From contig OY729431.1 in the NCBI GenBank assembly GCA_963422395.1, positions 960,001 through 1,024,000 on the forward strand: a stretch of 64,000 bases of DNA, given 5' to 3'. The DNA is from Vicinamibacteria bacterium (GTDB lineage: Bacteria > Acidobacteriota > Vicinamibacteria > Marinacidobacterales > Marinacidobacteraceae). The notes under the pieces were generated by a model. That model was given only the letters and a program-made list of their open reading frames with translations, did no database searches and was not told where the DNA came from. Made by a program: the position numbers and the translations under genes. Below are positions 48,429-50,602 of this stretch, one piece after another. Every line of letters begins with the position of its first letter. The first letter of the stretch is position 1.

Positions 48429-49994
48429 TCACCGGTGCTCGCCGAAGACCGCCCGGAGCGCGTCGCTGATCTCGCCGACGGTGGCCCGGGCGGCAGCCGC
48501 GCCGAGGATGGGCGGCATCAGGTTCCCGCTCCCGCCGGCGACCCGGCGCACTTCGGCGAGCGCCCGTTCCACCGGCTCGGGGCTCCGGTGTTCCCGCACC
48601 CGGCGAACGCGCTCCACCTGCGAGGTCTCCGCCTCGGGGTCGAGCGTGAAGGGCGCCGGCCGGCTCTGTTCTCCCTCCTGGCGGAACCGGTTCACCCCGA
48701 CCACCGTCTCCCGGCCTTCCTCCAGGTCGCGCTGGAAGGCATAGGCCGCTTCCTGGATGCGCGCCCGAACGAAGCCCGATTCGATGGCTGCCGCCGCCCC
48801 GCCGAGACGGTCCAGCTGCTCGATCCACGAGACCGCCTCCGCTTCGAGCTCGTCGGTTAGCGCCTCGATGGCCCAGGAACCGCCGAGCGGGTCGGCGGTC
48901 GCCGCCACTCCGCTCTCGAAGGCGATCACCTGCTGGGTGCGGAGCGCCAGTCTCGCGGTCTCCTCGGTCGGCAGGCCGAGCGCCTCGTCGAGCGCGTTCG
49001 TGTGCAGCGACTGGGTTCCGCCGAGGACCGCGGCGAGCGCCTCGAGCGTCGTCCGCACCACATTCACCTGGGGTTCGAGCGCGGTGAGGGTCGAGCCTGC
49101 GGTCTGGGCGTGGAAGCGCAGCATCTGCGCCCGCGGGTCCTTCGAGCCGAAGCGCTCGCGGAGCAGCGTCCCCCAAAGCCGCCGGGCGGCGCGGAACTTG
49201 GCGACCTCTTCGAGGAAGTCCCGGTGGGCGCCGAAGAAGAAGGAAACCCGGGGGGCCACCTCGTCCACCGTGAGGCCGCGTTCCACCGCCGAGCGGACAT
49301 AGGCGAGGCCGTTCGCCAGGGTGAACCCCACCTCTTGCGCCGCAGTGCATCCGGCCTCGCGCAGGTGATAGCCGCTCACGCTCACCGGCTGGAAGCGGGG
49401 CAGCTCGCGCCGGCACCACTCGATCACATCGGCGGCGAGCCGGAGCGAAGGCTCCGGTGGATAGATCCAGGTTCCCCGCGCCGCGTATTCCTTCAGGATG
49501 TCGTTCTGGACCGTTCCCGAGATCGCCTCGAGCGCCGTTCCCTGCCGCCGGGCCACCGTTACATAGAGCGCCAGCAGGATGGCGGCGGTGGCGTTGATCG
49601 TCATCGAGGTGGAGACGCGCCCGAGCGGAATGTCCGCGAACAGCGTCTCCATGTCCTCGAGGGAATCGATGGCGACCCCGACCCGCCCGACCTCGCCGGC
49701 GGCGAGGGGATGATCGGAGTCGTATCCGATCTGGGTCGGCAGATCGAAGGCCACCGAGAGCCCGGTCTGCCCGCTTTCGAGCAGGCGGCGGTAGCGGCGG
49801 TTCGAGGCGGCGGCAGTGGCGTAGCCCGCGTACTGGCGCATCGTCCAGAGCCGCTCCCGATACCCGGAGGTGCGGATGCCGCGGGTGAAGGGGGCTTCGC
49901 CGGGGAGTCCGAGGCGCGCCTCGCCTCCCGGCGCGTCCTCCGGCCGGTAGAGCGGGCGCAGGGGCCGCCGGGAGCTCTCGGGCGCCGAACTCAC
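48429..49994 (-). CDS. Methylmalonyl-CoA mutase family, substrate-binding large subunit (no B12 domain)
   Basis: [58 protein letters not shown]. Confidence 0.95.
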
Positions 49995-50602
49995 GGCTCC
50001 GGCTCGGGCGCGCAGGCGAACTCGCAGACCAGCACCCGGCTCCCCCAGATTTCGGAGCGCGCCTGGTCCAGCGGGCAGAGGCGAACCAGCTCTTCTTCGA
50101 AGAACAGCGGGCATTCCTCGGCGAGCGCGGGGCCGAGGTCTTCGGGGCGGGCGATGGTGAGCTCGAGCCGCCGGCGGAGCGGGGTCCAGCCTTCGGTCTC
50201 GCCGAGGCCGCGCAGGTCCCCGAGGAGCTGCTCGACCTGACGGCGGGCGTCGGGGAGCGGCAGGTCCCCATCCTGAACTTCGGCCAGGATGGCGCGGGCG
50301 CGCTCGCGGAGCCCGCCGATGGAATCCTGCCGAGCGGACCGGACCGCCGCCGGTGCCGGATCTTCGGGGACGCCGGAGGCGGCGGCCGCCGCCGACCCCA
50401 GCAGTCTGTGGATGAAGTGGCGCGAGCCCAAAAGCCGGTGAGGCGCGCGGCGGACAAGGCGCGATTCGGGAGGCACACCGGGTGTATTCCGACTGAATCG
50501 CAACGCCGAGCGAAGCGGTTCCGCCGTGATGCATCGCCGGTCGACGGCCGTGTGACTTTGTCCACAGGCTGCTAGAGCGGCAGCGAGCAGGAGGGGCCGC
50601 AT
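49991..50602 (-). CDS. Exported hypothetical protein carrying an in-frame MITE insertion
   Basis: ATG 6 nt downstream of the phyH stop; stop overlaps the mutase [13 protein letters not shown][MITE]-GSAAAAAS. Confidence 0.7.
50402..50571 (-). mobile_element. MITE copy 4 (170 bp), inside a CDS
   Basis: Minus strand CTAG|CAGCCTGTGGACAAAGT...ACTTCATCCACAGACTG|CTGG. Confidence 0.9.

Follow-up and report, generated by a model that had tools for sequence, protein, structure and literature searches.

Mobile repeats standing in frame in bacterial genes are known, while their effects on the encoded proteins are almost never known. Miniature transposable elements with inverted repeats (MITEs) that duplicate a TA have DDE partners, either of the IS630/Tc1-mariner type or of the IS5/IS1182 type with CTAG-like targets. 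Among the closest described systems are the Rickettsia palindromic elements (RPEs), small palindromic mobile repeats located in frame in protein genes (Ogata et al. 2000, as cited in the available text of the review PMC10969869); intragenic ERIC and QMITE2 repeats are other examples (available parts of PMC10969869 and PMC5896051). As described in the accessible parts of their reports, QMITE1 and QMITE2 of Coxiella burnetii (PMC5896051) and the GTAG REPs (PMC3733652) overlap the 3' ends of genes, to which they supply the stop codon or the terminal residues. Here we describe a MITE that interrupts the signal peptide of a small, conserved exported protein in a Vicinamibacteria bacterium (assembly GCA_963422395.1). 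The gene lies in a stretch of 64,000 nucleotides, positions 960,001 to 1,024,000 of contig OY729431.1, which we call the window and whose positions are counted from its first letter. An earlier reading of the letters alone (the original prediction) had proposed that this insertion creates a lipobox and may thereby convert a soluble secreted protein into a lipid-anchored one.

In its small size, its many copies, its inverted-repeat termini of about 20 bp, its duplicated TA and its Y-TA-R target preference, the window family resembles other TA-duplicating MITEs. As for RPEs, the likeness to what the available text of the review reports is that the window MITE stands in frame in a conserved gene, that the gene stays open and that the added peptide is presumably tolerated. 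RPEs were, however, reported there from dozens of genes and at internal positions (PMC10969869), whereas the few coding cases of the window family (about four) are all situated in the 5', export-signal part of genes, and only one of them splits the hydrophobic core. Recurrence in many unrelated genes was not observed: a single full copy interrupts conserved coding sequence, and three further 5' cases were found. As for QMITEs and GTAG REPs, the likeness is that 24 of the 123 places of the window family overlap predicted 3' ends and supply a TAG stop. C-terminal overlaps and internal inserts are described in the accessible parts of PMC5896051 and PMC3733652, and neither a signal-peptide insertion nor a new lipobox appears in them. 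The available text of PMC10969869 mentions neither "signal" nor "lipoprotein", and a literature search on MITEs or transposable elements together with signal peptides or lipoproteins returned no report of a MITE in a signal peptide or of a MITE-made lipobox. A single paper naming both a lipobox and inverted-repeat transposable elements turned up; it is a genome report and, judging by its listing, unrelated.

A transposable element in the core of a signal peptide

The window is G000:C1:960001-1024000, G000 being a single-contig genome of 2.908 Mb with 68.4% G+C. Its genes were mapped with a crude codon-usage gene finder (2,222 genes, 89% of the genome); the unpublished genome G036 underlies none of the claims below. 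The anatomy of the insertion is solid (Table 1). The gene strand reads ATG CGG CCC CTC CTG CTC GCT GCC GCT CTA / GCA GCC TGT GGA ... CAC AGA CTG C / TG GGG TCG, where spaced slashes mark the junctions here and below. The insert amounts to 174 nt (172 bp plus the duplicated TA) and adds 58 stop-free codons, A11 to L68, between codons 10 and 69. It was predicted that a MITE is inserted in frame inside a signal peptide, and this was borne out: the repeat is real (123 places, inverted repeats, flanking TA), and its insertion point falls within the hydrophobic core of the orthologues' signal peptides.

When positions 50395-50585 were compared with the genome by blastn, 133 high-scoring segment pairs were obtained, which merged into the 123 places, 44 of them full-length copies. 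From the alignment of these 44 copies, the family ends were defined as x-TA / GCAGCCTGTGGACAAAGTCACACGG ... GCCACTTCATCCACAGGCTGC / TA-x, with terminal inverted repeats GCAGCCTGTGGA(C/T)(A/G)AAGT on both ends. Flanking TA was present on both sides in 40 of the 44 copies, while the whole flanking 4-mers were identical in just 15, so the target duplication comprises 2 bp. The originally predicted division into a 170-bp element and a 4-bp target has therefore to be replaced by a 172-bp element and a 2-bp TA; the length of 174 nt and the 58 stop-free codons nevertheless stay right, because for a CTAG target both divisions give an identical sequence. The targets inferred for the 44 copies were T-TA-G (18), C-TA-G (14), C-TA-A (5), A-TA-G (3), T-TA-A (2) and C-TA-C (2). 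With its inverted repeats at the termini, its target-site duplication and its many dispersed copies, none large enough to code for a transposase, the element is a MITE that duplicates TA and prefers Y-TA-R targets.

The interrupted gene is conserved. Of 27 genomes from the same taxonomic family, 25 yielded an orthologue of its post-element part (P0002), as did 16 of 19 from a sister family, and the gene order PhyH - small open reading frame (ORF) - mutase was kept in all 19 related loci fetched. The insert was absent from these 19 loci as well as from 31 aligned database homologues, which thus provide the insert-free orthologues against which the site can be compared, as the original prediction had suggested. 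Their N-termini are ordinary Sec signals, e.g. MSRLRARTAAALGTAFLLASAGLA and (V)IGARGALAAIALGSAFALASMAG, and the insertion point coincides with a conserved AL / GS midway along the hydrophobic core. The Leu codon at this point is CTC in relatives; in G000 it is the rare CTA, which forms the target together with the next G. A cysteine in the signal of this family is not unique to the insert, because the natural homologue P0023 has ...PALLLAAC / ALASAD in its signal region, with a native LAAC at about position 22; another homologue, P0068, has LALCG there.

The mature domain contains 32 invariant alignment columns, including those of four cysteines, all of which are kept in G000. No family was found by a Pfam search with the 203-residue protein (E <= 0.1). 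An AlphaFold2 model based on 32 sequences had a mean pLDDT of 58, with only the helical pair at residues 95-137 confident; the insert stayed below 50, which fits its expected disorder. The insert's 58 residues are markedly basic in composition, with 11 Arg and 4 His against 1 Asp and 2 Glu. A database search with residues 9-70 retrieved only the near-identical protein P0005 among 162 candidates of 111-356 residues, which weakly suggests that the insert peptide is rare among called proteins, the query being short and the database very large.

The open frame itself is not evidence of selection. Of the 44 full copies, nearly all of them intergenic, 40 lack a stop in the frame used here. Read in the direction of the gene, the window copy is open in two of its three frames, and the one stop in the third is the target's own TAG. 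An insert length divisible by three is a one-in-three event. The CTA-to-CTG change at the right junction and the open frame were both considered as signs of selection and set aside, as both are expected without it. The window copy differs from the others by about four private substitutions in addition to the TA-to-TG change, i.e. by ~3%, from which it follows that the insertion is not brand new. One difference concerns the first position of the in-frame GTG (residue 43), where all 43 other full copies have A (ATG).

The insertion is tolerated and present in every sampled population that could be checked. A contig of the public run X6 bridges the left junction, and contigs of runs X1 and X3, coming from the unique flanks, reach 22-30 nt into the element. 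An empty-site joint across 50400/50573 was not seen in contigs of four public runs from several studies, though contigs drop rare variants. The run that matches best may derive from the source sample, and no RNA data set was among the runs found to carry the locus. A second database protein, different in one residue, also carries the insert. A low-depth X6 contig leaves out 174 nt of the PhyH gene (50722-50897), and just 21 letters lie on the shorter side of this skip; the contig probably stems from another organism, and the match in length with the insert looks like an unrelated coincidence.

Start codon and possible fates of the protein

As for the start codon, the original prediction would be overturned by a start downstream of the MITE, and the comparison with relatives placed the ancestral start upstream of it. 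In 17 of the 19 syntenic loci the start of the small ORF overlaps the PhyH stop (ATGA/GTGA), and in the other two it follows this stop by 8-14 nt; in G000, the PhyH TAG stop is followed by six bases and then by the ATG at 50602. The N-terminal MRPLL of the window protein recurs in the distant homologues P0066 and P0069. Since relatives' starts overlap the PhyH stop and MRPLL recurs, we regard this ATG as the ancestral start, in a position of translational coupling. Two other choices have been made by software: an external gene caller placed the start of P0005 at the GTG of the element, and the codon-usage score prefers a TTG (residue 58). No Shine-Dalgarno-like sequence can be read before either codon. 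Because N-terminal "intragenic" repeats are often annotation errors, as the available part of PMC3733652 warns, the start was compared with those of relatives, and this comparison argues against an annotation artefact at this locus. The gene is very probably still read from the ancestral ATG, giving a 203-residue precursor with an arginine-rich, disordered insert of 58 residues.

To explain the fate of this precursor, we propose the following model. A non-autonomous TA-duplicating miniature transposon, of a family widespread in this Vicinamibacteria family and with few targets in its GC-rich genome, landed in the TA of an uncommon Leu codon, CTA, that stands before a G and lay midway along the hydrophobic core of the Sec signal peptide of a small, conserved exported protein. 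The insert adds exactly 58 codons in a naturally stop-free frame, while the ancestral ATG has stayed directly behind the upstream stop. The N-terminal half of the core (PLLLAAAL), together with the first codons of the element, would then form a minimal lipoprotein signal; the precursor would be processed by Lgt and LspA, and the old mature domain held by a lipid anchor on a linker of ~55 residues. We tentatively consider lipidation through the N-terminal half core the likeliest single fate of the protein, at somewhat less than an even chance.

Several observations are consistent with the model. L10-A11-A12-C13 matches the lipobox consensus [LV][ASTVI][GAS]C given in the accessible part of PMC8048626, so that the motif was correctly recognized in the original prediction. 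The N-terminal 13 residues match a lipoprotein pattern (G+LPP/DOLOP-style), exactly at its minimum of ten uncharged residues. Genes for both processing enzymes, lspA (Peptidase_A8, 127.6 bits) and lgt (LGT, 170.2 bits), are adjacent in G000. In terms of Kyte-Doolittle values, which are used throughout, no stretch of the first 90 residues is more hydrophobic than the N-terminal segment (mean 2.26 over 10, versus 1.46 for the leftover half), and the net charge of the first 18 residues after Cys13 is 0, as read from the sequence. A positive residue, an uncharged hydrophobic stretch (of borderline length here), L-A-A-C and encoded Lgt and LspA are shared with Sec signals processed by signal peptidase II as these are described in the available parts of PMC8048626 and PMC6930937. 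Unlike usual signals of this type, the window signal is the shortest in the genome and would have arisen accidentally from a transposon end, its orthologues being of the signal peptidase I (SPI) type. Other candidates with short signals and Cys at 14-15 exist in G000, e.g. MRRIVPMLFLATAC and MRLLPALLTLAAIGC. Some of these short neighbours resemble real lipoproteins (MRLLPALLTLAAIGC / AGS and MRRIVPMLFLATAC / SAPP), and at least one, MPRYSTLPLFAAAC..., could equally be cleaved by SPI.

Other observations weigh against lipidation. Lipoprotein signals place the Cys at 15-35 according to the PROSITE rule, and Cys13 falls below this range. It is also the earliest among the 80 pattern-positive genes of G000; the nearest are two genes with Cys14 and four with Cys15, and the mode lies at 22. 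The n-region is just M-R, with R2 as the one positive residue before 10 uncharged ones, and membrane passage would be required of a very basic linker, with 11 Arg against 1 Asp and 2 Glu in 58 residues. L-A-A-C begins this frame in 18 of the 44 full copies; the end of the element simply encodes it, so nothing shows that it was selected here. The same element is tolerated in three other genes without any lipobox (see below). Finally, a match to the lipobox does not guarantee processing, because single substitutions in the hydrophobic core block lipidation of meningococcal FHbp (available part of PMC6930937).

A somewhat unlikely alternative, though one to be reckoned with, is that the element merely lengthens a signal that is thrown away: it would serve as a long basic n-region, the leftover half as the working core, and SPI would cut near AAS / G. 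Translation could then start at the ancestral ATG, at the GTG (43) or at the TTG (58), the mature protein would be soluble and periplasmic as before, and LAAC would be irrelevant. The same arrangement is found in three other genes for exported proteins, where ...RSRCSRRFIHGLL or ...ARSWGSPHFIHGLL directly precedes an intact core. A-A-S before G suits the -3/-1 rule for SPI, the positive-inside rule favours a cytoplasmic location of the +8 segment, the codon-usage score and the external gene caller chose the TTG and the GTG, respectively, and an unchanged mature protein would be the simplest reason why the insertion is tolerated. The leftover core is, however, weak: it has 10 residues with 2 Leu and a Kyte-Doolittle sum of 14.6, while intact cores reach 28-32 in the three other genes and 27.6 and 32.6 in two orthologues. 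Moreover, the stronger hydrophobic segment stands first, at the very N-terminus, neither GTG nor TTG has the Shine-Dalgarno-like sequence mentioned above, and the upstream ATG retains its coupled position.

It is still more doubtful that export was lost or crippled, with the split core leaving two sub-threshold halves, the protein remaining cytoplasmic or being degraded, and the gene representing an early pseudogene whose frame stays open merely through a stop-free element and short time: each half is indeed shorter than the core of any orthologue, an open frame requires no selection (40 of 44 copies) and a copy with ~3% private change may be too young for visible decay, but the mature domain retains every invariant residue including the four cysteines, the inserted form is the only one seen in the public runs, and the gene is still flanked by two conserved neighbours, with stops and starts that overlap or adjoin at each end. 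In addition, the distance of the mature domain (109 residues) to outgroup genera was 0.378 for G000 and 0.409 for the sister genus g2 (PhyH, 0.283 and 0.285; mutase, 0.187 and 0.188); no rate increase is thus apparent, which points away from decay, if only weakly, as a test on 109 residues is low in power.

The lipid anchor is a proposal with a concrete prediction, namely that a transposon end and a Leu codon together make a working lipid-anchor signal. If true, a protein could change its compartment in one step. Such a finding would also be a warning for the annotation of lipoproteins and start codons in repeat-rich genomes from metagenomes; at this locus, an external gene caller already set a start inside the element. 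If false, the locus would still be a clean example of the damage that a signal peptide tolerates.

The element family and its other coding insertions

The 123 places of the family are distributed with respect to predicted genes as follows: 87 are intergenic, 24 overlap a 3' end, 6 overlap a 5' end, 1 overlaps both ends and 5 lie inside a gene. In total, 118 are intergenic or at gene ends, and no full-length copy in the middle of a gene was found among the 123. The 3'-end overlaps mostly measure 2-5 nt, the TAG stop of the gene consisting of the target TA and the first G of the element. As both element ends begin with G, a stop arises anew when the element enters the TA of a TAA or TAG stop codon. 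Targets are scarce: G000 has 669 CTAG sites versus about 8,484 expected from base composition (8%), and 237 TTAG, 235 CTAA and 57 TTAA sites, all four motifs reaching 3-8% of this expectation. Half of the CTAG sites fall between genes; in 189 cases the motif is read in frame as CTA-G.

Other family members are 173-221 bp long. Of 27 genomes from the same taxonomic family, 20 were found to contain the element family, including 16 of 16 in the nearest sampled genus, and some of them gave several hundred first-look candidate copies; it was detected in none of the 8 and 10 genomes, respectively, of two sister families. An Rfam scan of 50300-50700 (E <= 1) found no family for the element, the sole match being a chance miRNA outside it. 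The RNA of the window copy folds into one long hairpin, but this fold was not better than those of shuffled sequences (z = -0.97), so that a special RNA structure is not indicated. Three head-to-tail copies, 91-92% like the window copy, were observed at G000:C1:2134312-2134834, with a single shared TA (TTAG) at each junction.

According to the original prediction, any in-frame CTA-G inside a signal peptide could be converted in the same way, which would make the element a general route to protein relocalization. This extension was not supported. We scanned all element-like left ends (695 motif hits at up to two mismatches) for an upstream start and a lipoprotein pattern ending at the Cys of the element, and only the locus described here qualified; the case is single in its genome. 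Two further scan hits were rejected: neither is an element, and one represents a native lipoprotein.

The three other clear cases of 5'-coding insertion have no lipobox. In all of them the hydrophobic core is intact and the element contributes only basic residues ahead of it. The first, at 1567977 (L060, G000:C1:1567931-1568020), encodes an exported protein of ~700 residues that begins with MRLSSSISFPF, followed by a 30-codon, internally deleted element (AAAGGRSHTAKGRRCPVDRSRCSRRFIHGLL) and then by FQAPLVLAALPGAFAQ. Its insert, an 88-nt element derivative plus TA, follows codon 11 in frame and precedes the signal-peptide core; 11 orthologue loci lack it and have plain signals such as MPRPSNSFRRATAAAALLSLALG. 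A GTG inside this element could be an alternative start. The second, at 2836061 (L061, G000:C1:2836061-2836160), has a conserved GGAGGCATCATG start context and a right-end remnant (...ARSWGSPHFIHGLL) before AVGLFVSSGVSAGAG, and was compared with nine orthologue loci. In the third, at 2110741 (L062, G000:C1:2110741-2110975; seven orthologue loci), a full element in reverse orientation directly precedes the core, and neither inside the element nor between the upstream ATG and the core is there an in-frame ATG, GTG or TTG.

All four clear 5'-coding cases thus concern exported proteins, which is suggestive, the sample being small and picked by eye. A plausible reason is that CTA-G can arise where a Leu codon precedes one for Ala, Gly or Val and that a signal peptide, being cut off, tolerates junk. 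We think it improbable, though worth stating, that, TA targets being scarce in these GC-rich Acidobacteria, signal-peptide regions are rare safe landing sites of the family within genes, where the stop-free, Arg-rich frame would be repeatedly co-opted into export signals, as an n-region in three genes and as a lipobox here, retargeting a soluble periplasmic protein. If true, this would make the transposon end a ready-made protein-sorting module.

Features of the window and a possible transposase partner

The features discussed above are listed in Table 1, together with the neighbouring genes and three other copies of the element in the window. A promoter and terminator scan of 49900-50750 returned nothing.

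Table 1. The MITE, the interrupted gene and other features of the window (positions counted from the first letter of the window)
Feature	Position	Strand	Remarks
MITE copy, 172 bp	50401..50572	-	inverted-repeat ends GCAGCCTGTGGACAAAGTCAC ... GCCACTTCATCCACAGACTGC; codes in frame for residues 11-68
Left TA of duplication	50573..50574	-	last two bases of Leu codon CTA (L10)
Right TA of duplication, now TG	50399..50400	-	CTA to CTG, both Leu; L68
Lipobox-like motif, codons 10-13	50564..50575	-	CTA GCA GCC TGT = L-A-A-C; target codon and first nine bases of the element
In-frame GTG in element, residue 43	50474..50476	-	start chosen by gene caller for P0005
In-frame TTG near element end, residue 58	50429..50431	-	start preferred by codon-usage score
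P0001, ORF of 203 residues, conserved small exported protein, now with insert	49991..50602	-	no Pfam family
Ancestral ATG (50600-50602) and first ten codons	50573..50602	-	from comparison with relatives
Leftover second half of old hydrophobic core and cleavage region, 10 residues	50369..50398	-	from sequence and alignment
Conserved mature domain	49994..50320	-	four invariant Cys: C164, C176, C193, C197
Upstream gene, PhyH-type dioxygenase	50609..51574	-	TAG stop at 50609-50611
Downstream gene, methylmalonyl-CoA mutase family	48429..49994	-	start overlaps stop of small ORF
Full copy of element, long variant	10035..10256	+	genome 970035-970256; adjoins 3' end of predicted gene
Copy of element, variant with different middle	30376..30641	-	genome 990376-990641
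Copy of element, variant with different middle	34396..34682	+	genome 994396-994682

As for the enzyme that might mobilize the element, no match to an IS630-type DDE_3 transposase was found in G000. The genome does contain an insertion sequence of 1.7 kb with DDE_Tnp_1, DUF772 and DDE_Tnp_1_6 domains, present in three long copies (L103-L105; G000:C1:1786185-1787911, 1969160-1970863 and 2137635-2139162) and in fragments. It is flanked by TA within CTAG, and its outer 8 bases, GCAGCCTG, are the same as those of the element, the ends differing beyond them. By this resemblance of ends and targets, the 1.7-kb sequence is a possible mobilizing partner, which we note as a lead only. A second, unrelated insertion sequence of 1.2 kb occurs in four copies, e.g. 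at 1960764-1961980.

A stretch of 1.35 kb between two element ends was considered as a carrier of the transposase and rejected, as it holds an rsmA-like methyltransferase gene instead (named by sequence motifs). This rsmA/ksgA-like gene (L094, G000:C1:2267301-2268800) is bracketed by the two element ends, and its last residues enter the right-hand one. Upstream of it, a stretch of ~230 nt is seemingly duplicated, with the peptide NGDNTFPLPPAAP.PKHDFER.TCLL present twice.

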